A DNA stretch of 63,023 bases, the filler included, from Atractiella rhizophila (taxonomy: Eukaryota): NCBI GenBank assembly GCA_021432655.1. It is 8 parts of 4 records of this genome, joined end to end, with 100 filler letters (N's around TTAATTAATTAA, not from the genome) between each part and the next. Parts side by side here need not be neighbours in the genome. Positions count along the whole stretch, not along the records: positions 9,618 to 31,472 come from MU271277.1; 7 more parts are not named here. One strand, given 5' to 3'. The position numbers and the translations under genes were made by a program. Shown here piece by piece: positions 9,518-49,782 of this stretch (positions are counted from its first letter, which is position 1; each line of letters starts with the position of its first letter). Under the pieces are notes generated by a model. That model made no database searches, was not told the DNA's origin, and saw only the letters and a program-made list of their open reading frames with translations.

Positions 9518-9617
9518 NNNNNNNNNNNNNNNNNNNNNNNNNNNNNNNNNNNNNNNNNNNNTTAATTAATTAANNNNNNNNNNNNNNNNNNNNNNNNNNN
9601 NNNNNNNNNNNNNNNNN

Positions 9618-10225
9618 TAAGGGGTGGAGGAGCGTATACGTTTGGAGGGGTGGAGAAGGAGTGGATCAGGGGAACGATGGTGTATGCGCCAGTCACGAGT
9701 TCGTTCTACTGGTTCGTCTCCTTTCCCTTATCCCCATCCTCCAGCGACTCACGCTGAACACTAACGGAACGGTTGGTTTTGGGCAGGGGTATCGAGCTCA
9801 CAGGCATCTTCGTGCGCAACGTAAACCAATTCTCACCTTCGACCCCACCTCGCGGTCTGATAGACACCGGCACCTCACTCATCTACACCTCGACCTCCAT
9901 CGCGGCCTCCATCCACAACTCCATCACCGGCTCCGCCTTCCTCGCCTCCAACAAACTTTGGACCGTCCCCTGCACCATCCCTCCCACGACACCAAATGTC
10001 TTCTTCGAGATGGGAAAGTCCAGGTTCGGGCTCCCAGCGCAGGAGTTGGCGTTTAAGGACCTCGGCGGTGGGAGATGTTTGAGCGCTATCCAAGGTGGAA
10101 GTGAAGGATTCACGGTCTTGGGTGCGGCTTGGATCAAGAATGTTTATGTCGTTTTGAGGGATGAGGGAGGGGGGAAGAAGAGCGTAGGTGTTGCGAATAG
10201 GACGGATGTTCCTGTCCTTTTTTGA
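9618..10225 (+). CDS. Pepsin-like (A1) aspartic protease, 3' part; 5' part lies in the gap
   Basis: GGAYTFGG...YAPVTSSFYW, intron, then GLIDTGTSLI...WTVPC...CLSAIQG...VLGAAWIKNVYVV. Confidence 0.85.
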
Positions 10226-10548
10226 GCCGTAGAAGCTTTTTGGGTTTTTGTTCTTCCTTTTGAGGGTGGAGGTGTGCGTAATTATTCTTCAATTCTTCAT
10301 CGTGACATCGACATAGTGCTGGTAGATATAAATACTTGGGGCGTCATCGAATTGCACACCTAACTCCATCATGCGTATGCACAATCGAACAAAAACTTGA
10401 AATTGAACCGACTTATCCAATGAAAGGAACTGAAAAGCTTGACAGGAGCACTACCAGCACAGGTGTAAACGAGACAAACATTTCTGAAACATCAAAGCTA
10501 AGAACCACTCATCAAAGCTCCAAGCACACACTGAACAAGGGCTAAGGG

Positions 10549-12427
10549 CTACGACGCCAGCACGGGCTGCCTCGCTGCTGACGGTGGTACCCCTGGCGCA
10601 CCTGTCGTCGTCCCTGTCGTAGGAGGTGCTGTTGCAGAAGCAGAAGGCGGGGGAGTCCAATCATCGACCTCTGCGAAGAAGCGGTCAAAAGAGGATTCGG
10701 CATATGCGACGCAATCGTGTCCGTATATGTTTTCTTGCATCCGTCTATATCATGCACAATTGCATCAGAGGGTCGTCCCTTTGCTGCCTACACATTGATT
10801 GGAGAAGGAAAAACCCACTGATCCGATACTTTGTCTGTGTTCACGTCCCCACCAACGTTCACCCGCCGACCTCGATCGTCCCGCTGCCCTCCTAGACTGG
10901 TATCCATTACCAAATGAACCTCTTTGCCAGAGTTCACCGCTTTGGCAAGCATCTCTTCGGCTCGCGTCTTTCGAACCCTCTATCGGCACATCCGAAATGA
11001 TCAGTTCAGATAGGTCGAGGAAGCAGAATGGGAAGACGAACCTCGTAGACTTTCAAACACTTGTGAATATCTTTCTTATCCTTTACCCGTGCAAGACAGG
11101 CAGCGATAACAGCTCCGTCCTCGATTGCTTGCGCTGCTCCCTATCATGGGCAGGACATCACTTCATGGGAACAACAAACAAGCGTCAAGACGCACCTGAG
11201 CTAAATGGGGTAGTGTAGCGTGACAAGCGTCCCCTGCCAACGCGACGTTCCCGTGCACCCAACTCCTGAGGTTTCCATGCATGACAAGTTTCCACTCGCA
11301 AATCTTGTCGTCTGGTGCAAGGTCCAAGAGTTTATGGATCAACTCGCAATAATCAGCGAAGACTTTCTTCATTCCCGCTTTCGTGCCTGTCGAAGTCCAA
11401 TTGTCTGATTGTGCAAAATTGATGTCGGGATGGGCGGTGGAGATGTTGAACAGAGTGTTGCGATGTATCGGGTAACCCTGTTGCAAATTTTCGGGGACAG
11501 AAGAAGAGTCAGTTTGGTCCCGAGGAGAAGCAGAACAGAGGGACGAACGAGGATGTACCGCCGGGTCCCGATCCAGCGATAGACCGTATTGGAGTCGATG
11601 AGCTTTCGCAGCTCCGGGTCGGCAAGCATCTTCTCTCTCGGGATCGTTATTCGATAGGCAGCTGTGCCTGTGTCAATTGCTGCTGTTATTTCAATTAGCT
11701 TTCTGGACGGAAATCCTCAAATCTCGAGAACGGACTCTTGTCCTCTTCCCCTAATGATCTCAGCATCAAATATCTCGCTTTGCTCTTAATGCCATCAGCG
11801 GCAATGATAACGTCGCCGTCAATCGTCATCTTGTTTCCTTCTCGATTGAAAGCAAAAATTGAGACTTTGTCAAAGTCCACATCCCCGACTCGATGATTCA
11901 AGATGAACCTGACGGAGCCGGCATATTCCGTTATGAGAGGCCGGTAGAGCGCGTCTATGAGAGATGCTCGATGTGCAACCTGGATTCGTTTAGCCCAAGT
12001 AAACAATCCACAGAAAGATGTAATTCAAGAACGGACCATATGCGGATATCCGTACTTCGCTCGAATGTTGGGTAAATTTAAATCTGCCAAACTCTCTCCG
12101 GTTGTTCCGCCTATCCACAAAGATGTCAGCCAGTAAATAGATATACGTCACACAAAGGCACATACGTCGGATGCTCGTCGCCTTCATCTCCACCGCGTCC
12201 TCCAAAACGCTATCCCACACTTTCATCCTATCCAATAGCCTCGCCATATTGGGAGCTACCTGAATTCCAACGCCGACAAAAGTCAAATCTCTCGCCTGTT
12301 CAATTACTGTTATGTCCTTGAATCCTCTCCGCGCAAGCGCCAGAGCAGTTGAGAGTCCGGCAATTCCAGAACCTAGAATGATTATACGCAGGTTTTGCGC
12401 TACGGGAGAGATGGGAACGGAATCCAT
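10549..12427 (-). CDS. FAD-dependent monooxygenase (salicylate hydroxylase-like, group A flavoprotein), copy 1
   Basis: GSGIAGL Rossmann motif, IAADGIKS (DG motif) and LAGDACHATLPHLAQ/GAAQAIEDG (GD motif), across GT..AG introns. Confidence 0.9.
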
Positions 12428-12827
12428 GTCGGCGACTTCAGGAAGTGATATGTAAGGAGCAGAGGGGGTTGAAGGGGTGAAGAAGAGAGGTTGTGGATTG
12501 TGGAACTAGATTGTTATCAGATTAACTATATCTTGAGCCAACAAACCCACAGTTTGGACAAGATATCGCCTGCCACTAAGCTGAAATTGCGAATTTGTGA
12601 GTTCCCTGACAGAAGGTAAGCAAAGAACGAACGTTAAGAGTGATGGTTGATGCGTCGCTCTGCTCCTGGATTTTCTTTATTTCTCGCTTGATCTCCTCCT
12701 TTTCTAAGATACCTCCACCAGAGTCTCTCAGAAAAACCTTTCTGTATCTTTCGCTTTGGTCTTCTGGCTCGAAGCTTTTCTCTCGCTTTCCTGTCTTCAT
12801 TCTCAGAGTCAGCATCGCCATCGCACA

Positions 12828-13955
12828 ATGAACAAATGTGAGAAACAGCTACAGGGAGGGCCAAGACAGCAAATATATGCTCGTGGGATCTTGCTGGGAG
12901 GCAGGCGTTCAGGAGGGGAGAGCCGACGAGTTGCCGTCAGAATTCCGGTAAAATCGTACGAGTTTGGAGGGGGGGGACACACCGGCTTCTCCTCTTCGAC
13001 TTGGACGGCCCTACCCAAGCCTAACGCGTTCAATATCGTCTATGCGGATGGAAGTAGCGTGCAGGGAACGAGTGGGAGGGACTCGGTCTCCCTCCCTCCT
13101 AGTGCTGGTTTGTTGGGTACATCCATTGGAGGAACGAGGGGAGTGGGAACGACAATGATCGTGAACGTCGCTCAACAAGTGACGGGGAATTGGGCTCGAA
13201 ACTCATACGACGGACTGATGGGTCTCGGACCGGACGCGTTGGCTCTCGTGCCTGGCACAACGACCTTTTTCTCTTCCCTCGTTGGGAGCGGGCAGATCGA
13301 TGGCTTGCTTGGTATCAGGCTTGTGGGTGCGAAGTCAGGAAGTGCGCTAAGGGGTGGAGGAGCGTATACGTTTGGAGGGGTGGAGAAGGAGTGGATCAGG
13401 GGAACGATGGTGTATGCGCCAGTCACGAGTTCGTTCTACTGGTTCGTCTCCTTTCCCTTATCCCCATCCTCCAGCGACTCACGCTGAACACTAACGGAAC
13501 GGTTGGTTTTGGGCAGGGGTATCGAGCTCACAGGCATCTTCGTGCGCAACGTAAACCAATTCTCACCTTCGACCCCACCTCGCGGTCTGATAGACACCGG
13601 CACCTCACTCATCTACACCTCGACCTCCATCGCGGCCTCCATCCACAACTCCATCACCGGCTCCGCCTTCCTCGCCTCCAACAAACTTTGGACCGTCCCC
13701 TGCACCATCCCTCCCACGACACCAAATGTCTTCTTCGAGATGGGAAAGTCCAGGTTCGGGCTCCCAGCGCAGGAGTTGGCGTTTAAGGACCTCGGCGGTG
13801 GGAGATGTTTGAGCGCTATCCAAGGTGGAAGTGAAGGATTCACGGTCTTGGGTGCGGCTTGGATCAAGAATGTTTATGTCGTTTTGAGGGATGAGGGAGG
13901 GGGGAAGAAGAGCGTAGGTGTTGCGAATAGGACGGATGTTCCTGTCCTTTTTTGA
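12828..13955 (+). pseudogene. 5'-truncated aspartic protease copy fused in frame to unrelated upstream sequence
   Basis: Protease-like residues begin at the duplication junction (HTGFSSSTW...FNIVYADGSSVQG...DGLMGLG). No signal peptide and no first DTG motif; only the second DTGTS is present. Confidence 0.7.
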
Positions 13956-16709
13956 GCCGTAGAAGCTTTTTGGGTTTTTGTTCTTCCTTTTGACGGTGGA
14001 GGTGTGCGTAATTATTCTTCAATTCTTCATCGTGACATCGACATTGTGCGGGTAGAGATAAATACTTGGGGCATCATCGAATTGCACACCTAACTCCATC
14101 ATGCGTATGCACAATCGAACAAAAACTTGAAATTGAACCGACTTATCCAATGAAAGGAACTGAAAAGCTTGACAGGAGCACTACCAACACAGGGTGTAAA
14201 CGAGACAAACATTTCTGAAACATCAAAGCTAAGAACCACTCATCAAAGCTCCAAGCACACACTGAACAAGGGCTAAGGGCTAAGACGCCAGCACTGGCTG
14301 CCTCGCTGCTGACGGTGGTACCCCTGGCGCACCTGTCGTCGTCCCTGTCGTAGGAGGTGCAGTTGCAGAAGCAGAGGGCGGGGGAGTCCAATCATCGACC
14401 TCTGCGAAGAAGCGGTCAAAAGAGGATTCGGCATATGCGACGCAATCGTGTCCGTATATGTTTTCTTGCATCCGTCTATATCATGCACAATCGCATCAGA
14501 GGGTCGTCCCTTTGCTGCCTACACATTGATTGGAGAAGGAAAAACCCACTGATCCGATACTTTGTCTGTGTTCACATCCCCACCAACGTTCACCCGCCGA
14601 CCTCGATCGTCCCGCTGCCCTCCTAGACTGGTATCCATTACCAAATGAACCTCTTTGCCAGAGTTCACCGCTTTCGCAAGCATCTCTTCGGCTCGCGTCT
14701 TTCGAACCCTCTATCGGCACATCCGAAATGATCAATTGAGATAGGTTGAGGAAGCAGAATGGGAAGACGAACCTCGTAGACCTTCAAACACTTGTGAATA
14801 TCTTTCTTATCCTTTACCCGTGCAAGACAGGCAGCGATAACAGCTCCGTCCTCGATCGCTTGCGCTGCTCCCTATCCGCCATGGGCAGGACATCATTTCA
14901 TAGGAAGAACAAACAAACGTCAAGACGCACCTGAGCTAAATGAGGTAGTGTAGCGTGACAGGCGTCCCCCGCCAACGCGACGTTCCCGTGCACCCAACTC
15001 CTGAGGTTTCCATGCATGACAAGTTTCCACTCGCAAATCTTGTCGTCTGGTGCAAGGTCCAAGAGTTTATGGATCAACTCGCAATAATCAGCGAAGACTT
15101 TCTTCATTCCCGCTTTCGTGCCTGTCGAAGTCCAATTGTCTGATTGTGCAAAATTGATGTCGGGATGGGCGGTGGAGATGTTGAACAGAGTGTTGCGATG
15201 TATCGGGTAACCCTGTTGCAAATTTTCGGGGACAGAAGAAGAGTCAGTTTGGTCCCGAGGAGAAGCAGAACAGAGGGACGAACGAGGATGTACCGCCGGG
15301 TCCCGATCCAGCGATAGACCGTATTGGAGTCGATGAGCTTTCGCAGCTCCGGGTCGGCAAGCATCTTCTCTCTCGGGATCGTTATTCGATAGGCAGCTGT
15401 GCCTGTGTCAATTGCTGCTGTTATTTCAGTTAGCTTTCTGGACGGAAATCCTCAAATCTCGAGAACGGACTCTTGTCCTCTTCCCCTAATGATCTCAGCA
15501 TCAAATATCTCGCTTTGCTCTTAATGCCATCAGCGGCAATGATAACGTCCCCGTCAATCGTCATCTTGTTTCCTTCTCGATTGAAAGCAAAAATTGAGAC
15601 TTTGTCAAAGTCCACATCCCCGACTCGATGATTCAAGATGAACCTGACGGAGCCGGCATATTCCGTTATGAGAGGCCGGTAGAGCGCGTCTATGAGAGAT
15701 GCTCGATGTGCAACCTGGATTCGTTTAGCCCAAGTAAACAATCCATAGAAAGATGTAATTCAAGAACGGACCATATGCGGATATCCGTACTTCGCTCGAA
15801 TGTTGGGTAAATTTAAATCTGCCAAACTCTCTCCGGTTGTTCCGCCTATCCACAAAGATCTCCGTCAGTAAATAGATATACGTCACACAAAGGCACATAC
15901 GTCGGATGCTAGTCGCCTTCATCTCCACCGCGTCCTCCAAAACGCTATCCCACACTTTCATCCTATCCAATAGCCTTGCCATATTGGGAGCTACCTGAAT
16001 TCCAACGCCGACAAAAGTCAAATCTCTCGCCTGTTCAATTACTGTTATGTCCTTGAATCCTCTCCGCGCAAGCGCCAGAGCAGTTGAGAGCCCGGCAATT
16101 CCAGAACCTAGAATGATTATACGCAGGTTTTGCGCTACGGGAGAGATGGGAACGGAATCCATGTCGGCGACTTCAGGAAGTGATATGTAAGGAGCAGAGG
16201 AGGTTGAAGGGGTGAAGAAGAGAGGTTGTGGATTGTGGAACTAGATTGTTATCAGATTAACTATATCTTGAGCCAACAAACCCACAGTTTGGACAAGATA
16301 TCGCCTGCCACTAAGCTGAAATTGCGAATTTGTGAGTTCCCTCACAGAAGGTAAGCAAAAAACGAACGTTAAGAGTGATGGTTGATGCGTCGCTCTGCTC
16401 CTGGATTTTCTTTATTTCTCGCTTGATCTCCTCTTCTAAGATACCTCCACCAGAGTCTCTCAGAAAAACCTTTCTGTATCTTTCGCTTTGGTCTTCTGGC
16501 TCGAAGCTTTTCTCTCGCTTTCCTGTCTTCATTCTCAGAGTCAGCATCGCCATCGCACAATGAACAAATGTGAGAAACAGCTACAGGGAGGGCCAAGACA
16601 GCAAATATATGCTCGTGGGATCTTGCTGGGAGGCAGGCGTTCAGGAGGGGAGAGCCGACGAGTTGCCGTCAGAATTCCGGTAAAATCGTACGAGTTTGGA
16701 GGGGGGGGA
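12978..16709. repeat. ~3.73 kb tandem duplication, unit 2
   Basis: Starts immediately after the G8-A run at 12969-12977 and ends at the identical G8-A run at 16701-16709. Confidence 0.95.
14280..16162 (-). CDS. FAD-dependent monooxygenase, copy 2
   Basis: Near-identical to 10549-12427 with the same motifs and no disabling change seen. Confidence 0.9.
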
Positions 16710-17176
16710 GGACGCTCGGTGGCTGATTGAGCGAGGAGGATCAGCTACTCCATACAAGCGAGCGATTTTATCATCAATTAGCAGAGAAAAAGGGAGAGAG
16801 CCAGAGGGCCGCACCTTGTTATACCACTTAGCGTTGGTCCAGCGGCGAAGTTCCACTTAAAAAGCACCAGAAAAGGTGCACCGAAACCTAAGATGCTCAA
16901 AGAACCCTGAGTACAGCTTTCCTATCGCGGCGCGCCCGCTCCGTACGCTAGAAGAGGTGAGACGAAGTGAGAGTCTTGCTCGATCTCGCCAACTTGAACT
17001 CTGGAAGATGATGTGGCTGTATTTGTCCACGAGAAATGGCCTTCGGGTCCGAGAGCTGCACAACCGTGAACGAATAATTCCCTTGTAATGAAATCGAACA
17101 TCTCGTCTCTCTTCATCAATGGTGTCTCGTGTTGGTAGCCAATGGGACCGCAAGTGTTGTTGAAACTGAGGTTCAT
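16311..17176 (-). CDS. Possible hypothetical multi-exon protein (its 3' end is also duplicated at 12576-12977)
   Basis: Chain of short same-strand ORFs (16922-17176, 16641-16856, 16311-16553) with protein-like composition; no recognisable motif. Confidence 0.25.
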
Positions 17177-17563
17177 CAGAGTGACAGAACGAAGAAAAGA
17201 TGAACCTCAGATAGCTGAAAAACAGACTAAACTACGGGAGCGGGCGGAACTGACACCAGATGCGATAGCCAGCTCAAAAGGGCAGAAAGAAAGTAAAAGT
17301 CAAAAACGTAATAACTTCAACAAGTGTGTACAAAGCTGTCTAATACTTCCCGCTCGTTCTGCGTGCCAGTAAATTCCTGACAACTCTCAATATGTTCCTG
17401 GGGCTTGGACTAGAGTGAACGAAAGTGAATTTCAAAGCGCAATAGAATGAGCGAGTTCCACCAGCTCTAGCATCTCCTCGCTGAGGAATAAGAATCAATC
17501 TCTACAGTCTCAACATTCTGCCATTTCAAGAAGTTCCCAAGACTTTCCAACTAAGATGCTTGC

Positions 17564-18685: not shown

Positions 18686-20069
18686 TTTCAGTTTTCAAAG
18701 AAGGACAGAAAGAAAGTGATAGTGATGATACGACAATATGCTGGCTTTTCAGCACAACAACAGCTTCGACAAGTCCAGAACAAGGTAAAGCAACACTTGT
18801 CAATCAAACAAGCTGAGCCAACTTATATACGCACATATTTCGGGCAACCCAGTGGTAACCAGCGCGGAAAAGATGGAACACTTGTCCACGCCTCACTGCC
18901 CAAACCGAATCCTCTTTAAACGCGCTCATTCAGTGCAGTGTCGTTCCCTTGTGCAACGGGTGTGTAACCGTCCTCAGGAAACCGCCGGCCGCTTCAAACC
19001 ATGTGGCAGAGCATCTGTACAAAGCGTTGTTCCCGAGGGGTGTAAAAGAAACAACGAAAGCGAAAGTTCCTGATGAAGTATACGAATTGGACTCATATGG
19101 ATATTAAATTCATTTCGCCAGCAGGGTTCCTTGCTTTCGAGTAGACGTGTGAAATTACCGTTCAGGGCAGCCACAAACCGCTTTCCCCGGTATCATCCTC
19201 GTTTTATCATCCTCCTTGACCTTTACTCCCCTCTGTCTTTGCCCTCCACCAGTGTTAATGCAATTCATCAAACTGCCGTCCGCATTCTCGTATGTTCATC
19301 AGTTTGTCGGCTCCGAGGCTCCGTTGAACACTTATGAAATGCACAAAAAGTGCAATGTCAGAAGGGAAAGACGGACTAGATGAATTTCATGCTCGATCAT
19401 AGGTTTTACAAAAAGTAAGGCGGAGGGTAGAAAGCTCTTTGTGGTTTATATGGAGAGATGAGGGTAAAAGTCAAGGTGAGCAGCTGTTAGCGTTGAAGAG
19501 TTGGGAGGCGAGAGGGATTCGTGGGTTCGTTTGCCAGCGTACCAACTGTTTAGAGAGGTATAGAACGCAATTGTACAAATTGGCTAGGTATCATCTCATA
19601 TCGTAACTAATCAAGCCAATGATTGAAAAGGGGAGACTTTAAACCTAAAGCACAGACAGACCATCAAAAATTCCTTCGAAACAAAACATAACTGGGAGAG
19701 AATTGATATCATTCGGGTCGTCAATAATCATGAGTGAAACGGCGTATGAATCCATGCATATAGAAGAAACCATTGGCACTGAACACTCCATTGACCCGGA
19801 GTGGAAGTTCTGGATCTATGGAGTACAGTCTGCGCGTGCATATTGTTTGTTGTGGCGAGCTAACTGCGAGACTGAGGGCGAAAACAAAAGCTGCGAAAGC
19901 ACAATACGGAGAAGAGCACGTTGGATGGAAGCGATGTCGACGGAAATGACGTTTTCCCTCAAGTTTCTGTCAGAGAGAATTCAAGTGAAGTTCAATGGCT
20001 GATATCTCTGTGTGCCCCTTACCACGTTGTTGTTACAGCTGGTGCTTGTACAGTGTGAGATCTAGAGAC

Positions 20070-20984
20070 TTACTGACTTTGGGAGAATTGCTGAGTTCGC
20101 GAGGCTAGCTGCGTTCGAGAAGCTGGCTGGTTTCGCGAGGCTTGCTGCATTCGAGAAGCTGGCTGAGATCGAGGGGGTTGCTGAGTTCCAGAGGCTTGCT
20201 GAATTTGAGAGACTTGCTGAGTTGGAGGGTCTTCCTGAGGGTCATAATCGAGAAGTTCTAAGATCTGCATGACTCTCTCGATCTCGTCCATAGGATTCCA
20301 TGCACGAGAAACACACTGTCTCTTTTAGCATTGTTATTTGGGCCGGGAGGAAACTCACATCGATGTACACGGCCCCAATAATAGCCTTAACCAGCTCTGC
20401 ACAGGGTCCTTCCTTAAGCTCGTCCACACGGTGGTATGCGAGGTCTTGAAGCCCATACTTCTTGCATGCCTCCTCCAGGGGAGCTCCCGCAAGGCGACGC
20501 TGGATGGTGTCGGAGTGTAATTCTGAACATCAGTCCCGTCAAAAAATATCAACGGGATAGAAGTACACACTTCCATTGTCTCCCCGACCGACACGGTGGA
20601 TGACCTGCAAAAAATGAGCGTTAAAGGCACGGGAATCGAGCCGTACAACAGCCTGAACTGTCTTCATCGCCACGTCACCCAAGCTGTGGACGATTGAGTT
20701 CAGTTCACGGATGGCATCACGATACATGCGGACACTGTACCGTGCTAGCCCTGCATTTGCGCCTTGAGGCCCGCCACTGTAGCTCGAGTGTGTGATTGCC
20801 GTTAACCACAAGTCGTCGTTCTGTCGGTCCACGGGGTAGCCGATAAGTTGGTTCAGTCGGCGGAAGCGCTCTTCCATGCTTGTAGTTCCATATCCTATAG
20901 AGACCTGTCACTTTTCCTGGATGGAGAAGTGACTTGAGCAGCCTCACCAGACTGATCACGCCACTCGTTGTTGTGTAAAGACAT
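20070..20984 (-). CDS. Stand-alone RNase III-domain protein, copy 1 (~223 aa, predicted catalytically inactive, xQQASR-repeat tail)
   Basis: Six phase-consistent exons: 20984-20948, 20894-20741, 20683-20647, 20604-20571, 20522-20359, 20315-20070. Motifs AITHSS, NAGLARLGD and AELVKAIIGAVYID. Confidence 0.85.
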
Positions 20985-21289: not shown

Positions 21290-22740
21290 ATGAGGCTCTG
21301 TTTTTTCGATCAATGTTTGTCCAGATCCTTGAGATACAGTAATATTTGCTCGCCTCCTCAAGTGTATCCGCCTAATGTTGTTGTAACCTTTGGCACCAAG
21401 TAGAAACTCAGATGGGCAATGCTGCTCTCCTTGTGTCTGTTGCGTGCAGCTCGATGGTTGCCAGTTCAGAACCAGATTTATAAGCCTGCGTGCTCTAATT
21501 CCAGTCCAAACGCTGACAGGATGACAGGGTGACAGGTTGTCAAAAATTGTCAAACTCGACCAATTAGGCTGCAATTACAATTCAGCCCGGCCTGGTTCCT
21601 GGCTCCACAGAAGGAAACAAAATGTGGATATCATGAGCTCATGGAGTTTCGTGGTAATGTAGGGCGCTCAGCGACTTCCACTCAAGTGCTGAACAGCGAA
21701 TGACAGGCTGTTCTCAAGAGTGTCTACTCACCGCAAGCAACAACCAACCAACAGGTGAATAAAGAGTGTCCGTCGCTATTAATGCAAGCGACGTCAGTCC
21801 TTTCTCATTTTTCTGAGTTTTGGAAAGATTCGGCGATTTGGTTACAATGATACTGGCGTTGTTTATTCCTCGCTTGCTCAATTCACGGTACGATAGAATC
21901 GATGTTTAACTCGAGCATTATATGGACGGTATGTCCTCCGAAACTGGGCGCTGGTGCGCTCGCCGAAGCGAAATAGTTGGGCGAGAGCACAGAGAAGTCA
22001 CACTAGGCTTGTGTGGATATGGGTACTGAATTCAAGCAAACAAACAACGACGTTAATACAATCTACATTATTTCAGTCAGATCATTTCTCTACTACGGAC
22101 TTTGGGTTAGAAAAGTGTCCATTACATTGTACGGGATCAATGAAGTTAGGTTGGATTGAGAGAATGCGCCAGCGTCGTTCACGTCTCTTACTCTTCATGC
22201 CTTCGCTAGGCTACGGATGGCGGCTTGGGTTGTCCAGCCATCTTACGCGCATTATCGGAACAGTAATGTATCCCAAATGTATCAGGAATTAGCCTGTTTT
22301 CATTGTCAACCATTCCAGGTATTTGACAATCATACCTCTTTCCTTCGATTTACGCGCAGCCATATTTTCATCGGACTTGTCCAGAGTCGTAGGGCCTACT
22401 CAGCGGGTTAGTAGCTTGAGCGTTATAATAAAGACCGGCAGTGCGCACGACATAAATGTCTGGCATAGCTTTCGCGGGAATTTTACGAAATCAGTAAAAC
22501 CCGGGATCAGAAAAATAAATCAGTAAAACGCGGGATCAGAAAAATATTGACTGTCTTCCTCCTCATTCATGGAGCAAAGATGCTGCCTGAGAAACGAAAC
22601 AAAGAACGCCTTGTGCATAAACTGACTGGGGATAGATGAGGCGATATGCTTGCCTTGTTCTTAAGAGCAGGCATCCTCGTCAATCCACAACTGAGACAGG
22701 CAGAACACATTTCCATTGAATTAATCACTCCTTCGCCATA
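21290..22740 (-). pseudogene. Decayed companion gene, unit 1 (F-box/LRR-like remnant)
   Basis: Fragments ALAQLFRFG, YNARVKH and PNRRIFPKLRK shared with units 2 and 3. In-frame stops and a 29-bp tandem duplication at 22488-22545. Confidence 0.4.
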
Positions 22741-23659
22741 GCTGGAATATGTATCCTATAGTCGACCTCCCTCCTAAGAACCTGAGCAAACAGGTAGCAG
22801 CGATAGCTGCAGAAGACCTCCACGCTTCGCCGCTTTCCAGCTAAGGTGCAACTCCTTAGGTCGTCCTCGCTGGAGAGGTGCACAATTAGCATTGGCATGA
22901 CGGACTCCGTGTTGGGAGTTGGGAGTTGTCCCGGTCGGCTCCGGAAGGGATGCGGTCGACGACACACGAACTTGACAGCAAAGGAAATAATGAACGAACC
23001 TTGTGTTTGATACTTAGGCCACAGGCTTCACAGGAAGTAGGGAGAGAGTTTCGGGGCTTATATGGGCGGGATAGGGATGCGACGGTAAAGAAAAGGTGCG
23101 GAGCTCTTCGCATTGAAGAGTCAGAGATGAGAGGGATTCATGGGTTTATTTGCCAGAGGAACTGTTGAGAGAGGTGGAGAGTTGTGATTTTACAGATCTG
23201 GCTAGGTATCATCGTCATATCGTAGCTAATCAAGCCAATGTTGAAACGGCGAAATTGTAAAGCGGACAGATCAAGTGCATCGAAAGTACAGAAAAGTGGA
23301 ACAGTTATCATTGAGGTCGTCAATAGTCAGGAGATGAAAGATGAGACGTATCTCAAACTAGTTCTCATGAAGGGCAAGAAGAAGGTGGCAGTGTATGTGG
23401 TAAAACGTAGTGCTGCTGAACGCAGACTATAGACGCGAAACGAAGGAAAGTCTTGGAAATACGGGGTATCGTGCATTAGATCATCGTAAAGGTCATTAGC
23501 TAACTGGGAGAAACTGATGAAAGAAAAAACGGCGTGGCTTAAAAATGAGAAGCAGAAAATGAATATGAGGCAATCAATTTGATGGAACCAGTGTCGGAAG
23601 TGACGTGTTTTTCCATGTTTTGTCAGACAAATTCAACCGAAAATCTACATGAATGGGTG

Positions 23660-24575
23660 TTATTTCTGTCTGGCCCTTGTCGTGTCGTCGTTCTCAGCTG
23701 GCGTACCCACCATGTTGGATGGAGAGGCTTGCTGAGTTTGAAAGAATTGCTGCGCTCGAGAGGCTCGCTGAGTTCGACAGGCTTGCTGAGTTCGTGGGGC
23801 TTGCTGATTTTGATCTTGCCGACGTTGAGGGTTATAATCAAGAATCTCCAATCTATGCATGACTCCCTCGATCCTGTCCATGGGATTGCATGCACGATAA
23901 ACACTCTGTCCCTCCACTTAGCATTGTTGTTCTGTCCAGGAAGAAACTCACATCGATGTACACAGCCCCAATGATAGCTTTGACCAGATCTGCGCAGAAT
24001 CCTTCTGCAGGTTGGGCAATGTTATGATATGCGAGATCTTGAAGTCCATAGTTCTTGCATATCTTCTCGAGAGGATGGCACGACAGGCAACGCTGAAGGG
24101 TTTGGGAAGTTAATTCTGAAATATTGGCCCATTACAACAAAAATCGACGGGATAGAAGCACACACGTCCGTCGTCTCCCAAACCGACACGGTGGATGACC
24201 TGCGAAAAAAATGAGAGTCCGGCGGTTGGGAAATCGAGACGTACCACCGTTTGAACTGTTTTCATCGCCACATCACCCAAACTGTGGACGATTTCAGTTC
24301 GCAGATGGCTTCTGCATGCGGACACTGACCGTGCAAGCCCTCCATTTGCGCCTTGACGGCCGCCAGAATAGCTCGAGTGTGTGATTGCCGTACGCCACAG
24401 GTCGTTGTATTGTCGGTCCATAGGGTAGCCGATCAGTCCATACAATCGCTCGAAGCGCTCTTCCACTGTACCTCCAGCAGCTCCATACCGTGGGAGACCT
24501 GTCACTTTTGCTGGCTGCAGAAGCAGTTTAAGCCTACTCACCAGACTGAGGGCGCCGTTCGTTGGAATAGTCCAT
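23660..24575 (-). CDS. Stand-alone RNase III-domain protein, copy 2 (~227 aa, predicted inactive, Q-rich repeat tail)
   Basis: Same five intron positions as copy 1. MDYSNERRPQS...AITHSSYSGGRQGANGGLARLGDVAMK...CADLVKAIIGAVYID...QQAPRTQQACRTQRASR. Confidence 0.85.
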
Positions 24576-24919: not shown

Positions 24920-25958
24920 TACAATAATATTTGCTCACCGCCTTGATTTATCCTTTTGATGTGGTAACTTTTATCACGAGGTAGAAACTGCAGATCAGTA
25001 ATGCTGCTCTGCACAAGGGTGTTCGGTGCAGCTCGATGGTTGCCACTTAGAACGGTATTAGAGCAAAGGAATTGCATAATCCATGCATATTCCTGAATGA
25101 TTGATGATTTGTGTCGATCCGAATCTTTCGGATCAGGACTATTCATTGTTATCCAGATTTATAAGCACACGTGCTCTTGTCAAATCGTCAAAATCGAGCA
25201 ATCGGGCTACGTTTACAACCCCAGGCGTGCTCGGATTGTAGCTCCCGAGAATGCTGTCATGAGTTTCATAGAGTTTCATGGTAATAGAAAGCGGGAACCT
25301 GACCGAAATGCAGATTTCGTTAAAGTGCAGAACAGCGAATGACATGCTCTTCTCACGCTCACCGCAAAATACAACCATTAGGTAAACAAAGACCTGCCGT
25401 TGTTTTTGAGACCTACAACGTTGGTCCTTCGTCATTTTTCTGGTTTTGGAAAGTTTTTGGCGATTTGGTCCCGACATTTAACTCGAGCATTGGAGACATG
25501 AGTGAAAATTTCTGTTCTCCGAAACTTTCGGCGGTGTCCCTCATGCCATCGCCCAAGCGAAATAGTTTGGCAAGGGCAAAGAGGCAGTCCCACCAGGTCT
25601 GTGTCATGGCACTGAATTGAAGCAAAAAAACAACGCCGTTAACGCAATCTACATTATTTCGGATCAAATGATTTCTCTATCATGGAATCTGGGTGAGAAA
25701 ATACACAACTGCAATTTTGCCAGATCAGCGGTGTCATGTTTCACTGAGAGAAGGACTAGGGCTAGCTTCGTTCAAGTCTCAACTCTTCTGCAGCCAGGTT
25801 GACCACCGTTCCCCCTTTCCCACCTCAAAGAAGGCGCCTAGGGCTGTTCAGCCATCTTTTGCGGTATTGATGCAGTGGTGTATTGATGCAGTGGTGTATT
25901 GATGCAGTGGTGTATTGATGCAGTGGTGTATTGATGCAGTGGTGTATTGATGCAGTGG

Positions 25959-26001
<43 letters not shown>

Positions 26002-26480
26002 TGATGCAGTGGTGTATTGATGCAGTGGTGTATTGATGCAGTGGTGTATTGATGCAGTGGTGTATTGATGCAGTGGTGTATTGATGCAGTGGTTTTGCCC
26101 TGAAAGTATAGGAGTTATCTGTTTTCATTGTCAGTGCACCTCCTCCAAGCCACAGTGAATGACAATGAACCCTTTTCTTCTTTGTGCCGTCACAGTTCTA
26201 TCGGATTTGTACGGTTCTATTTTGGTTCCCTCGTACGCAAATGGATAAGGTCGCCAACTTAACCATCAAAGACTGGTAGTGCTACAAAGAAGTGAAATTT
26301 CGCGGGTTCAAAGTTCCTATGCGTCTTCATCCATGCAGCGAAGCTGAGGATACAAAGAAAGCCTTGTGCATCTGAACAGAGGAATAGAATGTGCCACAAG
26401 CTTGTCTTGTGTTCAGGAATCCCAGTCAATCCATAATGAGACACGCATCACAAATTTGAAATAATCACTCCTTCGCCATG
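24920..26480 (-). pseudogene. Decayed companion gene, unit 2 (F-box/LRR-like remnant)
   Basis: RNNVDCVNGVVFLLQ...DCLFALAKLFRLGD; frameshifts, deletions and a minisatellite inside it. Confidence 0.4.
25865..26093. repeat. 16-bp minisatellite (TATTGATGCAGTGGTG): 6 units, A40, 6 units
   Basis: Counted directly: units 25865-25958, poly(A) 25959-25998, units 25999-26093. Confidence 0.95.
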
Positions 26481-26883
26481 GTTGGATGTATATATATTGG
26501 ATCATCGATGTATCATCGAGGAAACTGAGCAAAGAGGTAGCAGAGAAGAGCTCCCGGCTCCGCCGCTTCCGTACCTATGGTGCAACCCATCAGCATCAGC
26601 TTGACCTCAGTGTTGTGTTGCGACCGTCGGCTCCGGGTGAACATCGAATGATCTGGATCGATGGTTGCTCGCTCAGAACCAGCTCGGCTCAGAACCTAGT
26701 TAAGGAACGCTGAGAAGTTGGCGGGCGAGTATTAAAAATTAAAGTGAGTGCGGAGATGAGAGGAAGCTTTCTTGTGGTTTAAAAACGGGGAAAATGTTGG
26801 ATATTGCATTCAGGTGAGCAGACGTTTTCATTGCAAGAGTGGAAGACGGGCGGCGAGAGAGATTCGAGGGTTCACGCTTTGGT

Positions 26884-28367
26884 GGCAGTTTAGAGGAACA
26901 TAGTGCGGTCGTACTCATCATCATATCGTACCTAATCAAACTGCTATCTGAAACGGAGAGACTGAAAAAAGCTCCATCAAACCAAAAATTGATTGTAGTT
27001 GGGGAGGGGAACATGGGGCAGAGAAATTGGTATCAGAAGAATTGGTATCAAGCAAGTCGTCACGCGTCAAAAGTCGTGAGGTATATCTCAGAGCTGGTTC
27101 CAACAAATAGAAGCGACAAGAGTATGTCGGTTGAATGGCTAGAACTCTGTATGCTGTAAGACATCATGAGGCATTTACGGTATCTGGGTCAAACGGGACG
27201 AAATGGAAAAACATGAAACAGGGATGAGAAGTGGGGGAGAAAACGACGGCGATGGGACTGATTATGGATGACATGCGCCATAGAGTACGATTTCTCCAAC
27301 TTTCTTTACTGAGCGAAAATCTTCCTTAATAATATTCGTAGTTGGTCTGCTGGTATTGTCCTTGACTGCTACCCCGTGGGTTGTACCCTTGGTTGTTATG
27401 TCGCTGATAGGATACCGGGTTGCCATTCGGCTGGTGGTACATCTGGTTGGCGATTGGCTGGTAGTATCCTTGGCCGCCACTCGGTTGGTTGTATCCTAGA
27501 GTGCTACTGGGATGGTAGCTGCCCATTGTCGTTAACTCGCTAGCACCACTTGTGGCTTCTACGTCTTGCTCTTGCTCTTGTCCTGGCCCTGGCTCTTGCT
27601 CGTCCTCTCGCTCCGGCCATTAAAAAGGCAGTTTAGAGGAACATAGTGCGGTCGTACTCATCATCATATCGTACCTAATCAAACTGCTATCTGAAACGGA
27701 GAGACTGAAAAAAGCTCCATCAAACCAAAAATTGATTGTAGTTGGGGAGGGAAACATGGGGCAGAGAAACTGGTATCAGAAGAATTGGTATCAGGCAAGT
27801 CGTCACGCGTCAAAAGTCGTGAGGTATATCTCAGAGCTGGTTCCAACAAAATTGAAGCGACAAGAGGATGTCGGTTCTGAATGGCTAGAACTCTGTATGC
27901 TGTAAGACATCATCAGGCATATACGGTATCTGGGTCAAACGGGACGAAGTGGAAAAACATGAAACAGGGATGAGAAGTGGGGTAGAAAACGACGGTGATG
28001 GAACTGATTATGGATGACATGCGCCGTAGAGTACCATTTCTCCAACTTTCTTTACTGAGCGAAAATCTGCCTCAATAATATTCGTAGTTGGTCTGCTGGT
28101 ATTGTCCTTGACTGCTACCCCGCGGGTTGTACCCTTGGTTGTTATGTCGCTGATAGAATACCGGGTTGCCATTCGGCTGGTGGTACATCTGGTTGGCGAT
28201 TGGCTGGTAGTATCCTTGGCCGCCACTCGGTTGGTTGTATCCTAGAGTGCTACTGGGATGGTAGCTGCCCATTGTCGTTAACTCGCTAGCACCACTTGTG
28301 GCTTCTACGTCTTGCTCTTGCTCTTGTCCTGGCCCTGGCTCTTGCTCGTCCTCTCGCTCCGGCCATT
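26884..28367. repeat. ~740 bp direct tandem duplication (26884-27621 and 27627-28367) with an AAAAA filler; copies only the 3' tail of RNase III-like copy 3
   Basis: Both units start GGCAGTTTAGAGGAACATAG and end CTCCGGCCATT. Confidence 0.95.
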
Positions 28368-29111
28368 GTTCTTTCTCAGGGTCATAAAGAAGACCCAGAT
28401 TATCCATGACTTCCTCGATATATTCCATGGGGTTGTAGTCACGAGACACACACTATCTCCCTCATTAGCATTGTTTTTCAACCAGGAGAGGACTCACATC
28501 GATGTACACGGCGCCGATGATTGCCTTGACCAAATCTGCACAACGGCTCCCAGGAAACTCTGACATGTTATAATATGCAAGATTTTCGAGCTTTATCCTC
28601 TTGCATGCTGCTTTGAGTGGGCGTTGGGACAGGCGGCCTTGGATAGCTCGGGTGTGTAAAACTGAATTGCAAGGTCATTCCAAATATCAAAGGCAGAGGC
28701 ACAGACTTGGGTCATCTCCCTTGCCAGCACGATAGAGAACCTGCAGAGAATAAGAGTGAAACAATTGTGGTATGAGGACATACTGCCGTCTGAACCGTTT
28801 TCATCGCCACGTCACCCAAGCTGCAGGAGGACCTGAGTTCGCAGATGCTTGCTCATTCAGCAGCCACGTACCGCGCGAGCCCTCCATTTGCGCCTTTGAC
28901 AGCGGTAGAATGGCTCGAGTGTGTGATTGCTTCGAGCCACAGGGGGTACTTCTCTGTGACAATAGTATATCCAGTGATCCTGGATAATTGCTGGAGCCGT
29001 TCCACTGCTGTGGGTACATCTGTTCCATTCCCTGTAGAGTTCTATTAGTCTCTTACTTTAAGACAAAAGAATTGCAGCGGCCTCACCAGCTTGACGGTTG
29101 CTGTTGGACAT
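28072..29111 (-). CDS. Stand-alone RNase III-domain protein, copy 3 (~266 aa, predicted inactive, acidic linker plus Q/N/Y/G prion-like tail)
   Basis: Same five intron positions. MSNSNRQA...EAITHSSHSTAVKGANGGLARLGDVAMK...CADLVKAIIGAVYID...GYNQPSGGQGYYQ...QGQYQQTNYEYY. Confidence 0.85.
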
Positions 29112-29989: not shown

Positions 29990-30910
29990 GCAGGTTAGTC
30001 TTCCGTCAGCTTTCTGAGTTTTGGAAAGATTCGACGATTTGGTGCCAATGATATCAACTTGTTTATTGCTTCCTTGCTCAATTCACGGCGCGACAAGAAC
30101 CGACGTTTAACTCCAGCATTGGAAACACGGTGGAATGTTTGTGTGCTCCAAACCTCGTCGCTCAAGGCGTCGCCGAAGCGAAACAGTTTGGCTAGGGCAC
30201 AAGAGGCAGTCCCTCAGGTTTGAGCCTGGGTACTGACTTCACGCAAACAAACAACGACGTTAATGCGATCAACATTATTTCAGATCAAATGATTTCTTAT
30301 CATGGACCTCGGGAAGAAAAATACGCACCATTCAATTTTGCCCAGATCAGTCACCTCATCTTTCATTCAGAGAACGGCCCTGCTTCGTTCCAGTCTCCTA
30401 GTCTTCCTTGGCCATTCTATGTCAAACAGTCGTGCTTGATATTGTTCCCCCGTTCTCCCGCTTATGGGAGGTGCCGTTGAGCTGTCCAACTCGAATGATC
30501 CGTTTCTGTATCCGAGCTCCTCCTCGCAGGTGAGTGACATGGATTGCGATTTTCTTCGAGTTATGCGCAGTCATGATTGCACTTGTATAGTGACGTGGGT
30601 TTGAACGTGTGCTGAGGGATTGATCATTAAAGATCGCAGTGCACCAGAAATAAACGTCTTGCAGTGTTTTCCCCAGAACTTTACGAAATCAGTAAAAGCC
30701 GGATTCAGAACATTTTTTTGGGTGTCCTCTTCATGCAGCAATCTGGGGTGCCGAACAAAGAAAGCTTTGTGCATGAACTGAGTAGAGGAATAGAAGGCGC
30801 CATAAGCTTGCCTTGTTCTCATTGTCCTTAAGAGCAGGCATCCTCGTCTCAATCCACAACTGAGACGGGCATCACACATTTCCACTGAATAAATCACTCC
30901 TCCAACGTGG
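29990..30910 (-). pseudogene. Decayed companion gene, unit 3 (F-box/LRR-like remnant)
   Basis: CALAKLFRFGD and NAGVKRRFLSRRELSKEAINKLISLAPNRRIFPKLRKLTE; in-frame stops; start codon lost. Confidence 0.4.
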
Positions 30911-30918
30911 TTGGAAAT

Positions 30919-31472
30919 ATGTACCTGTTCGCACTTCTTTTCTTCCTACAAAGTCAAACCTTCTTTGCTTATGCCATGCCGCAACAATGTGAGTATCCTC
31001 TTCCTTTCAAGTTTCTTAAGAACAACATTCTGATGCTTTCCAGCTCTACCCCTAACAACAGGGGGACTGTACCCTATAGGATTCAGCTTGGGCCCTCTGG
31101 TGACTGATGTAATCCAACCACCATCCTTGAACGAGCTGAGTGCGTTGGGATGGAGCACCATCATGTCCAGCACTAGCTTAGAAGTCACGACTGCGACTGT
31201 CACAGTTCTGGTATCACCAACTGAAAGCCACGCGAAATACTTTAGGAAAGAGAGGAAAGCTGCGTGGTTCTCTTGTCGCGAGTTGCGGACAGGGCTAGAA
31301 AATCTAAGAGTAAGTGAAAGGTGTCCCTACGGCACTACAGTGAGTGTGGTTCTTGATCAGGTCTATAATACGGGTGCTGCTGGTCGCAGTTGCAATTGTT
31401 TGCTCAAAAATCTAAGTAGTAGAAGAGGCCGCGACAACCCTATACGTCCCCACCTCCTTTGGTGTCCTTGGC
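30919..31472 (+). CDS. Possible small secreted protein (5' part; runs toward the gap)
   Basis: Signal-peptide-like MYLFALLFFLQSQTFFAYA; canonical 55-bp intron 30989-31043 joins in frame to a Ser/Thr-rich ORF. Confidence 0.4.
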
Positions 31473-33244
31473 NNNNNNNNNNNNNNNNNNNNNNNNNNNN
31501 NNNNNNNNNNNNNNNNTTAATTAATTAANNNNNNNNNNNNNNNNNNNNNNNNNNNNNNNNNNNNNNNNNNNNAACGGTACGCAACTTGTTATTGTTATCA
31601 TGAATGGCGACAATGGTGGCTTTTCGGCTAGTTTCCATATGATTGGACGCCATTTTAAGCTCGCCTCATCTTGTTTGGTCTGGTTGAATCCTCCAGCTCC
31701 AGAGAAGATGAGTTCAATGCCATAAACTCAACGGTGCCAAGAAGCGGGACAAGCGTCAGAACATTAAGGACGCAAAACATATGGATTTCGAAGTTGCACA
31801 TCAGACAACCATAAAAAGAGCTTGGATAAATTCAGTGGTCCTTCCACACGATCAAATGAGGATGATCTTCTTTTTCTTCTTCTTCTTTGCCGGTGGGCGG
31901 AGCACTGCATCATCTGTCCTTTCATNNNNNNNNNNNNNNNNNNNNNNNNNNNNNNNNNNNNNNNNNNNNNNNNNNNNNNNNNNNNNNNNNNNNNNNNNNN
32001 NNNNNNNNNNNNNNNNNNNNNNNNNNNNNNNNNNNNNNNNNNNNNNNNNNNNNNNNNNNNNNNNNNNNNNNNNNNNNNNNNNNNNNNNNNNNNNNNNNNN
32101 NNNNNNNNNNNNNNNNNNNNNNNNNNNNNNNNNNNNNNNNNNNNNNNNNNNNNNNNNNNNNNNNNNNNNNNNNNNNNNNNNNNNNNNNNNNNNNNNNNNN
32201 NNNNNNNNNNNNNNNNNNNNNNNNNNNNNNNNNNNNNNNNNNNNNNNNNNNNNNNNNNNNNNNNNNNNNNNNNNNNNNNNNNNNNNNNNNNNNNNNNNNN
32301 NNNNNNNNNNNNNNNNNNNNNNNNNNNNNNNNNNNNNNNNNNNNNNNNNNNNNNNNNNNNNNNNNNNNNNNNNNNNNNNNNNNNNNNNNNNNNNNNNNNN
32401 NNNNNNNNNNNNNNNNNNNNNNNNNNNNNNNNNNNNNNNNNNNNNNNNNNNNNNNNNNNNNNNNNNNNNNNNNNNNNNNNNNNNNNNNNNNNNNNNNNNN
32501 NNNNNNNNNNNNNNNNNNNNNNNNNNNNNNNNNNNNNNNNNNNNNNNNNNNNNNNNNNNNNNNNNNNNNNNNNNNNNNNNNNNNNNNNNNNNNNNNNNNN
32601 NNNNNNNNNNNNNNNNNNNNNNNNNNNNNNNNNNNNNNNNNNNNNNNNNNNNNNNNNNNNNNNNNNNNNNNNNNNNNNNNNNNNNNNNNNNNNNNNNNNN
32701 NNNNNNNNNNNNNNNNNNNNNNNNNNNNNNNNNNNNNNNNNNNNNNNNNNNNNNNNNNNNNNNNNNNNNNNNNNNNNNNNNNNNNNNNNNNNNNNNNNNN
32801 NNNNNNNNNNNNNNNNNNNNNNNNNNNNNNNNNNNNNNNNNNNNNNNNNNNNNNNNNNNNNNNNNNNNNNNNNNNNNNNNNNNNNNNNNNNNNNNNNGGG
32901 ACAGATTTCAGGATCTTGCATTCGCAGTGACCGCAAACAAAGCAAAAGAGAAAACGACACGAATAGAATGTGCTGGGCATGACTAGTGAGAGAAAATCAT
33001 GTGCTGTCTCGCACCAGACGCGCGACATAGTTGCTGGGAGCATCATCCAGGAGCCAGGAGACTTATCGCAGGAGACTTATCGTAGGGACCGAGGAAGAAG
33101 ATGGTGAGGCAGATTTGACAGTCCACTCTCTTGGGAAGAAAGACTACAGCTTCGCCTTCTTCCCTGACGTGAATCTCAACACGAAGCAAGTGCAAAGATA
33201 GCAAAGATGGTACCAATAGCCTAGTGAAGACAAAGGAAAGAAAC

Positions 33245-36682: not shown

Positions 36683-37012
36683 NNNNNNNNNNNNNNNNNN
36701 NNNNNNNNNNNNNNNNNNNNNNNNNNTTAATTAATTAANNNNNNNNNNNNNNNNNNNNNNNNNNNNNNNNNNNNNNNNNNNNCTGAAACTCAGGTAAGTT
36801 CTCCACTTCAACGAAGTTAAACGCCCTACCAGTGCAATCTCAATATTTGTGAGGTGCTTTGCTGAACCTTTCAGAGACGGATTTCTAGCCTTCTCTTGTG
36901 TCCCGGATCCGAGCAGAGAAAGGAGCAAGATTTAGACTCATCAACTTTTAATTCGAACTATTTATGAATTTGGGGCAATTTAGCCTGCCTTAATCTCAGT
37001 CGTACTTCCAAG

Positions 37013-38718: not shown

Positions 38719-39083
38719 TGTGGAGTTAGGGGTTTCATGTCTGTGAACAGATATATTATCGTCATGATGGTATAAATCTTGCCGCAGAAGTCACTTTGGG
38801 TTGTTTGCAAAGTTCCTTCTATCTGAACATCCTTCAAACAAAACGTCCATTTTCTCCACTCAATCGGCGCTTCGTCATCTGCCATGTTTTAGCTCAGAAG
38901 GACAAAGGGAATGACACAGAGTGAGCGATCTAACTCGTAGGCACATTCAATTCAGGTCCATTTCCGTTAATACTAGTACATGANNNNNNNNNNNNNNNNN
39001 NNNNNNNNNNNNNNNNNNNNNNNNNNNTTAATTAATTAANNNNNNNNNNNNNNNNNNNNNNNNNNNNNNNNNNNNNNNNNNNN

Positions 39084-44130: not shown

Positions 44131-44230
44131 NNNNNNNNNNNNNNNNNNNNNNNNNNNNNNNNNNNNNNNNNNNNTTAATTAATTAANNNNNNNNNNNNNN
44201 NNNNNNNNNNNNNNNNNNNNNNNNNNNNNN

Positions 44231-49462: not shown

Positions 49463-49782
49463 NNNNNNNNNNNNNNNNNNNNNNNNNNNNNNNNNNNNNN
49501 NNNNNNNNNNNNNNNNNNNNNNNNNNNNNNNNNNNNNNNNNNNNNNNNNNNNNNNNNNNNNNNNNNNNNNNNNNNNNNNNNNNNNNNNNNNNNNNNNNNN
49601 NNNNNNNNNNNNNNNNNNNNNNNNNNNNNNNNNNNNNNNNNNNNNNNNNNNNNNNNNNNNNNNNNNNNNNNNNNNNNNNNNNNNNNNNNNNNNNNNNNNN
49701 NNNNNNNNNNNNNNNNNNNNNNNNNNNNNNNNNNNNNNNNNNNNNNNNNNNNNNNNNNNNNNNNNNNNNNNNNNNNNNNNNN

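Follow-up and report, generated by a model that had tools for sequence, protein, structure and literature searches.

Three tandem RNase III-like paralogues of Atractiella rhizophila are predicted pseudonucleases with a substituted metal site

What a ribonuclease III (RNase III) domain may do once part of its metal site has been replaced is the question raised by a stretch of 63,023 nucleotides (nt) of DNA from the basidiomycete Atractiella rhizophila (hereafter the window, to which all coordinates refer). On its minus strand the window carries three tandem RNase III-like paralogues: c1 (19981-20984), c2 (23660-24575) and c3 (28072-29111). The initial model of each copy has five introns of 42-76 nt, bounded by GT..AG, between six coding exons. 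The introns vary in length from copy to copy, but exons 3, 4 and 5 measure 37, 34 and 164 nt in all of them, as is expected of real exons. The c1 model (exons 20984-20948, 20894-20741, 20683-20647, 20604-20571, 20522-20359, 20315-20074 and 20017-19981) was revised on the basis of RNA contigs, which revealed an extra 3' intron of 56 nt (20018-20073); its removal eliminates the first-assumed stop codon and yields a protein of 234 amino acids (aa). The c2 exons (24575-24542, 24465-24330, 24281-24245, 24199-24166, 24115-23952 and 23905-23660) encode 216 aa, identical at 216 of 216 positions to protein P0002, and the c3 exons (29111-29087, 29031-28872, 28820-28784, 28740-28707, 28661-28498 and 28452-28072) encode 266 aa, identical at 266 of 266 positions to P0005. 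Both P0002 and P0005 are deposited as hypothetical proteins of A. rhizophila. In the case of c1 no identical protein was found among the database matches, and the closest is P0001 at 67-71% identity. In each of the three proteins a single all-helical RNase III domain of ~150 aa precedes a disordered tail, rich in Q/N/Y, whose length varies.

The splicing of the three copies was followed in contigs of RNA runs. Runs X1 and X2 are metatranscriptomic RNA on record, X5 is guessed to be RNA, and the kind of X7 is not recorded; contig depth was not taken as a level of expression, nor were stretches lacking RNA cover taken as evidence. In c1 the joints of introns 2-5 are present (20683>20741, 20602>20645 with the cut displaced by +2, 20522>20571 and 20315>20359), that of intron 2 in runs X5, X1 and X2, and intron 1 is found with 1 or 21 unaligned letters between its two sides. 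The joints of introns 2-5 of c2 are also present, with that of intron 2 (24281>24330) seen in four runs. In c3 the contigs contain the joint of intron 5 (28452>28498) and an intron 4 of the correct length, 2 nt off the prediction; introns 1-3 of this copy, absent from the joints listed, were not used as evidence. All three copies in the window are expressed.

Two further features of the RNA contigs touch these genes. In some contigs of run X1 homologous exon ends of c2 and c3 are fused (24280>28872 and 28809>24330), and these contigs are most likely assembly chimeras between the paralogues. Directly downstream of c2, at 23040-23600, lies the highest depth of X7 contigs (~104), and a GT..AG joint, 23093>23964, has a short side of only 28 letters. 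This may represent an unannotated plus-strand transcript that overlaps c2 in antisense, or an artefact.

The assignment of the domain rests on profile matches and on the predicted fold. Pfam family PF14622 is matched at 44.7 bits by c2 (P0002) and at 38.4 bits by c3 (P0005), above the cut-off of 35, and PF00636 at 19.7 and 17.4 bits, respectively, below the cut-off of 27. The c1 copy was matched to Pfam only as exon fragments, with sub-threshold scores; single-exon translations gave only sub-threshold Pfam matches (expectation value, E, 0.015-0.085) and no meaningful match in the Protein Data Bank (PDB). The AF2 model of c2 has a mean predicted local distance difference test score (pLDDT) of 82.5, with domain blocks at 84-98 and 141 residues at 90 or above; the score is above 90 over about residues 11-160 and drops to 45-65 after residue 160, so that the C-terminus is predicted to be disordered. 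A Foldseek comparison of this model with the PDB gave 23 matches at E ≤0.001, led by the Aquifex, E. coli and Campylobacter RNase III structures. The best match is the Aquifex E110K mutant (1rc7; E 2.4e-5, root-mean-square deviation 2.3 Å over 140 columns), and the template modelling score normalised by target reaches 0.83. The models thus support the paralogues as RNase III-domain proteins with the RNase III superfamily fold. A double-stranded RNA-binding domain (dsRBD) is missing, as the initial annotation had implied: a search of P0002, P0005 and P0006 with PF00035 at E up to 0.01 gave no match.

The signature N-[AG]-G-L-A-R-L-G-D is found in all three copies and is visible only after splicing. 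In c1 it reads NAGLARLGD (20674..20757, minus strand) and is split by intron 2 (20684-20740) within the Arg codon (CG|C); in c2 (24272..24346) and c3 (28811..28888, both on the minus strand) it reads NGGLARLGD and also spans intron 2 (24282-24329 and 28821-28871, respectively). The reading across this intron is given by the RNA joints in c1 and c2 and by the identity of the model with the deposited P0005 in c3. The second motif, A-[DE]-L-V-K-A-I-I-G-A-V-Y-I-D, has Glu at its second position in c1 (AELVKAIIGAVYID; 20359..20400) and Asp in c2 and c3 (ADLVKAIIGAVYID; 23952..23993 and 28498..28539), again on the minus strand. Its Lys codon differs synonymously between the copies, being AAG in c1 (20386-20388), AAA in c2 (23979-23981) and AAG in c3 (28525-28527). 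Both motifs and all three Lys codons had been read in this way by the initial annotation and are confirmed here, with both motifs of c1 at the place originally given, by the spliced models and RNA joints.

The Lys of the second motif had been placed at the position of E117 of E. coli RNase III, and the profile alignments agree. In the HMMER alignments E117 of E. coli RNase III (7r97; six-member profile, E 5.7e-5) and the Lys engineered into the Aquifex E110K mutant (1rc7, 1yyo) both stand opposite the family Lys, the equivalence resting on sequence alignment within a matching fold. The columns were counted in an alignment of 6 family members (the family is delimited below) and 129 other RNase III-domain proteins, the latter chosen by similarity to the family profile and not an unbiased sample. 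At the E38 column the family has G or A in 6/6 members (E in 103/129 of the others), at E41 it has A in 6/6 (E in 120/129), and at E117 it has K in five members and Q in one (E in 125/129). In contrast, Asp is kept in 6/6 members at D45 (D in 126/129) and at D114 (D in 86 and N in 30 of 129), where c1, outside the alignment, has Glu. The E65 column holds D in four members and N in two (E in 109/129), and F42, the interface 'ball', is R in 6/6 (F in 106/129). Two of the four canonical metal ligands are accordingly present: E41 has become A, D45 is still D, D114 is D/E, and E117 is K, or Q in the case of P0006 and P0007. By this alignment the glutamates equivalent to E38, E41 and E117 are lost, and the aspartates equivalent to D45 and D114 are kept. 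The state common to the three copies, which are paralogues, is one inherited event and not three independent ones.

The importance of these positions is documented for the canonical enzymes. In the Aquifex enzyme both metals are held by E40, D44, D107 and E110, and the last of these (E117 in E. coli) is a ligand of both Mg ions and essential for function, as described in the excerpts of PMC3867540. Because two of the four ligands are gone, the family domain is very unlikely, judged from its residues, to carry out canonical two-metal cleavage of double-stranded RNA (dsRNA). The designation 'predicted pseudonuclease', given to the three copies by the initial annotation, is well founded in respect to canonical dsRNA cleavage, with E41 replaced by Ala, E117 by Lys and E38 lost in addition. 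The E. coli allele rnc70, a term absent from the review text searched, is the E117K substitution and binds RNA with no cutting. A natural Lys at this position is not unique to the family, since P0044 (1165 aa, two RNase III domains), whose second domain reads Y-H-K-L-K-F-L-G-D and A-D-A-L-K-A-I-F-G, has Lys at the E117 position as well as at that of E41.

A substituted site could also mean that the genes are decaying duplicates or annotation artefacts with no function. The region is indeed rich in tandem duplications, the database matches include no protein identical to c1, and the tails evolve near neutrality. Against this, the frame of no copy is interrupted over its 6-7 exons, the GT..AG introns are intact, each copy is represented by spliced RNA contigs, and the domain itself is conserved. 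The ratio of nonsynonymous to synonymous substitutions (dN/dS, calculated pairwise by the Nei-Gojobori method with our own script) is 0.23-0.32 for the domain at dS of 0.57-1.4, whereas it is 0.90 for the tail of the c1-c2 pair, the remaining tail pairs being saturated. The domain is under purifying selection. In addition, 58 columns are invariant across six members of the family, including the whole N-x-G-L-A-R-L-G-D-x-A-M-K-T helix and D-L-V-x-A-I-I-G-A-V-Y-x-D. The absence of function is largely refuted by these observations, and we give it only a very slight chance.

The family is narrow. When 1.84 billion representative proteins were searched with the profile, 125 matches were returned at E ≤0.001, and the 4 at E ≤1e-10 all belong to the family; in a search of 5.8 billion proteins seven family proteins were found, on four contigs of one species, and the next match stands at E 3.1e-8. 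The sequences thus delimit a family of eight members (the seven database proteins and c1), found only in A. rhizophila, which is a statement on databases in which its class is perhaps thinly sampled. Within the family the E117 position is Gln in P0006 and P0007 and Lys in the other six. The literature searches made on ribonucleases of the species and on RNase III pseudoenzymes gave no publication on this family; none of the papers from the first names the species, and those from the second all cover trypanosome complexes or methods.

Trees of the domain group the family with the short proteins P0065, P0026 and P0097 (Shimodaira-Hasegawa-like approximate likelihood ratio support of 93 for the wider group, and 96/93 in a second tree). 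These three proteins have L-A-R-L-G-[DE]-x-[AV]-M-K-T in common with the family, their own form of it having E after L-G, and carry Gln at the E117 position. The next relatives outward, P0046 and P0123, have lost E41 and kept Glu at the E117 position. The simplest reading of these sequences is a stepwise decay in which E41 was lost first, E117 was then replaced by Gln, and some family members later exchanged Gln for Lys, an order proposed with the reservation that the tree has long branches and no resolved fork near P0006. The catalytic loss probably predates the Lys. Since Gln takes its place in P0006, P0007 and the closest relatives outside the family, the Lys can be dispensed with and either K or Q is tolerated, which weakens the suggestion of the initial annotation that the Lys plays a special role as a phosphate contact in place of a metal ion. 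After the family, the next-best sequence matches are dsRBD-containing RNase III proteins of bacterial type, at E of about 1e-8 to 1e-9. Horizontal transfer from bacteria was considered and is not claimed, given that in the trees, whose branches are long, the family groups with short non-canonical proteins of a eukaryote-like type.

The complex was modelled as a homodimer of c2 residues 8-168. The ipSAE score is 0.79, compared with 0.00 for the best of 3 controls, the contacts agree at 100% from run to run, and the partner pLDDT is at least 83. In the benchmark of this ipSAE mark 21/30 proteins solved as one-chain pairs and 0/23 single chains pass, and in the case of eukaryotes 17/29 pairs, or 1/7 when an older solved relative is lacking. 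The predicted interface comprises residues 48-72, 77-83 and 133-144, i.e. the signature helix, and the predicted homodimer offers an explanation for the remaining conservation of this helix. The net charge of the domain ranges from 0 to +7 in the family, versus a mean of -2.6 (standard deviation 4.4) in the 129 other proteins. The loop corresponding to RBM4 has 18-19 residues in the family and a median of 21 in other RNase III domains, from which no conclusion was drawn.

The tails that follow the domain are rich in Q/N/G/Y/S/P (0.44-0.74 of residues) and contain few hydrophobic residues. Those of c1 and c2 are built of 18-nt repeats: in c1 (20074..20250, minus strand) there are about eight Q-rich hexapeptide repeats, [TSMN]-Q-x-A-S-R (repeat family D2; Q fraction 0.29). 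In c2 the contigs of two RNA runs from related strains contain 39 extra letters at 23813/23814, inside the hexapeptide repeat, so that the length of the tail is polymorphic in the number of repeats, comparable to the longer tail of P0001. The last ~100 aa of c3 form a Q/G/Y/N/P/S-rich tail with a QNGYSP fraction of 0.63. At the other end of the proteins a hydrophobic stretch was looked for and none was seen, which argues against secretion, and the N-terminus is by inspection acidic and not presequence-like.

Taken together, we consider it reasonably probable that the paralogues are non-catalytic RNase III-fold dimers of a lineage-restricted pseudoenzyme family. The invariant N-x-G-L-A-R-L-G-D-x-A-M-K-T helix would have been kept as the subunit interface of a symmetric dimer, as in the complex model, and the proteins would act with no cutting, as homodimers or as mixed dimers of paralogues. 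The former catalytic valley, de-acidified and now neutral to basic, may be a binding site for a protein partner or for structured RNA, to which the low-complexity tails may add multivalent contacts. Several points weigh against this picture. No dsRBD or other RNA-binding module is present and RNA binding is not assured. The homodimer envisaged by the initial annotation is indeed predicted, but its passing score is possibly a memory of the solved RNase III dimers, which would make it a measure of likeness and not of binding; the model was moreover built without our own family alignment, and the replacement of the 'ball' Phe by Arg in 6/6 members gives the interface a different chemistry. The equivalents of D45 and D114, together with D or N at the E65 equivalent, remain near the site, and a one-metal or otherwise non-canonical activity is conceivable.

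The last point leads to the possibility that the proteins are still active nucleases with a non-canonical site or substrate. Excerpts of PMC8136814 describe such a case, Mucor R3B2, whose atypical RNase III domain bears uncommon substitutions at catalytic positions and still cuts RNA, only single-stranded (ssRNA), and the purifying selection on the family domain would fit an enzyme as well. R3B2, however, retains three acidic residues in the canonical arrangement, with one Asn only, and it needs its two dsRBDs for binding, having lost most of its RNA affinity upon deletion of both (PMC8136814, same excerpts), whereas the family retains two of four ligands, has Lys or Gln at the metal-bridging position, and lacks any dsRBD. 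The Aquifex E110K and E110Q enzymes were, according to their PDB titles, crystallised in complex with dsRNA, which they had left uncut. A remaining nuclease activity is in our judgement quite improbable. The family may instead serve as a regulatory partner, the dead domain heterodimerising with Dicer, Rnt1 or another active RNase III to form a one-site 'nickase' or a dominant-negative pair, in the manner of the trypanosome KREPB proteins for KREN1-3. The interface on the signature helix is conserved and its pairing is predicted, KREPB4/5 are known examples of non-catalytic RNase III partners (excerpts of PMC3867540, PMC6800513 and PMC9508840), and PMC3867540 cites activity for heterodimers of E. 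coli RNase III in which one subunit is functional. On the other hand, the window contains no catalytic RNase III, and the Arg in place of the 'ball' Phe may block pairing with canonical domains. The two RNase III domains of eukaryotic Dicer and of Drosha pair intramolecularly with one another, which also speaks against such a partner. We regard a regulatory partnership as rather unlikely.

The inactive RNase III-like pair mL44/mL57 of the mitochondrial large ribosomal subunit provides a further model, namely that of a structural protein of the mitoribosome. Mitoribosomal chains do occur among the fold matches (7o9m_c, mL44, at rank 24 and the yeast chain 3j6b_9 at rank 28), and a fragment of c2 exon 5 matches PF22935 weakly (E 0.072). 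No such chain, however, was found in the PDB sequence and profile searches at E up to 1, full-length c2 and c3 show no match to PF22935 at E up to 0.01, and eight diverged copies with variable Q-rich tails and an acidic N-terminus are not what this role would suggest; we consider it very improbable. A bolder extension of the non-catalytic dimer is a still-expanding, natural 'rnc70-like' family, in which the neutral-to-basic groove and the prion-like Q/N/Y-rich tails would allow multivalent (mixed) dimers to sequester structured RNA or dsRNA from Dicer or Rnt1. This proposal is put forward as a speculation that is unlikely to be correct; if true, a root-associated basidiomycete would possess its own means of modulating RNA silencing, or the dsRNA of mycoviruses or transposons.

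Comparison with known systems places the non-catalytic dimer favoured above in a wider frame. The best sequence and fold matches are to the bacterial class 1 RNase III of E. coli (Rnc) and Aquifex (7r97, 1rc7, 1yyo), with which the family has in common the helical domain, the LGD and IGAxYxD cores and the helix used in the predicted dimer. It differs from them in the lack of a dsRBD, the loss of E38 and E41, the Arg in place of the Phe 'ball', the 5-6 introns of its genes and the eukaryotic low-complexity tail, at an identity of ~20-30%. Mini-III likewise has a single RNase III domain and no dsRBD, but is catalytically active according to the excerpts of PMC3867540, whereas the family is without two of the four metal ligands. 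In RNC1 of plant chloroplasts the domains are silenced by active-site substitutions and are non-catalytic on RNA (PMC3867540, same excerpts), yet RNC1 has two tandem domains per chain, is targeted to the organelle and works with WTF1, while the family has one domain, no targeting signal and Q/N-rich tails. KREPB4-10 of the trypanosome editosomes are degenerate RNase III pairing partners and pseudoenzymes (as far as the excerpts of PMC6800513, PMC5648035 and PMC9508840 go), with zinc-finger and PUF modules and a mitochondrial complex with KREN1-3, none of which is seen for the family. No specific sequence kinship to RNC1 or to the KREPB proteins was found. Mucor R3B2 is similar in its fungal origin and in the homodimer formed by its atypical RNase III domain, and differs by its three acidic residues, two dsRBDs and cutting of ssRNA (excerpts of PMC8136814), compared with two acidic ligands and no dsRBD here. 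The nearest tree relatives, P0065, P0026 and P0097 (155-217 aa), have D45 replaced by Glu and D114 by Gln, lack the Q-rich C-terminal tail and are ~25-28% identical to c2; in the ESM Atlas the nearest cluster to P0065 consists of proteins of 162 aa whose known members are mostly Ascomycota (score 0.95), which is a lead only. The family fits the category of non-catalytic RNase III-like proteins (a substituted site kept under selection), a category that is functional and not monophyletic, and it differs from all the compared systems in its architecture and tandem amplification.

The surroundings of the genes are those of a eukaryotic, duplication-rich region, with short GT..AG introns and fragments of genes for an aspartyl protease, a kinase, a lipoxygenase and a copia-type reverse transcriptase. 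Each of the RNase III-like genes has on its upstream side a block (21810-22757, 25471-26486 and 30011-30926) that is 73-85% identical between the repeat units. The conserved intergenic parts (21810-22089/25471-25728/30011-30297 and 22429-22757/26352-26486/30628-30926) were searched for a partner gene of the repeat unit, and the candidate was rejected, as no consistent open frame occurs on either strand; these parts may be non-coding remnants of the duplication, shared promoter or untranslated regions, or a decayed second gene. Between c2 and c3, at 25817-26140, lies a 16-nt microsatellite (unit TATTGATGCAGTGGTG, 14 register copies) split by a poly-A stretch of ~40 nt. In a tandem duplication of ~745 bp (26884-27431 and 27627-28177), 96-99% identical, the second copy extends over the 3' flank of c3 and the final ~100 nt of its coding region, and the first copy is covered by X7 contigs. 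Farther away, at 9500-17300, a recent tandem duplication of ~3.73 kb contains fragments of an aspartyl protease and a flavin adenine dinucleotide (FAD) oxidoreductase; the open reading frame (ORF) pairs 9758-10222/13488-13952 and 11993-12505/15728-16240 have identical Pfam scores. Other gene fragments (36968-40067, 41957-42505, 45784-46614, 49783-52170 and 58107-59518) comprise three APH-family phosphotransferase ORFs, a lipoxygenase, the N-terminal domain of a GTP cyclohydrolase, a protein kinase and a copia-type reverse transcriptase (RVT_2). The window also includes longer runs of N (31926-32897 and 49463-49782) and seven pairs of 44-N runs with 12 bases between them (9518-9617, 31473-31572, 36683-36782, 38984-39083, 44131-44230, 54298-54397 and 60530-60629).

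In terms of annotation, the label 'ribonuclease III' is unsuitable for these genes. Silent RNase III domains are known in few settings, i.e. chloroplast RNC1, the partner proteins of the trypanosome editosome and mitoribosomal mL44/mL57, and the family of A. rhizophila is a minimal version, with one domain, no RNA-binding module, low-complexity tails and eight diverged copies in one fungus. Judging from the alternation of K and Q at the E117 position, inactivation would have come first and the Lys later. The family thus offers a natural experiment on the role of the RNase III dimer after removal of the metal site, and on whether the interface helix alone can account for the conservation of the 'signature motif'.

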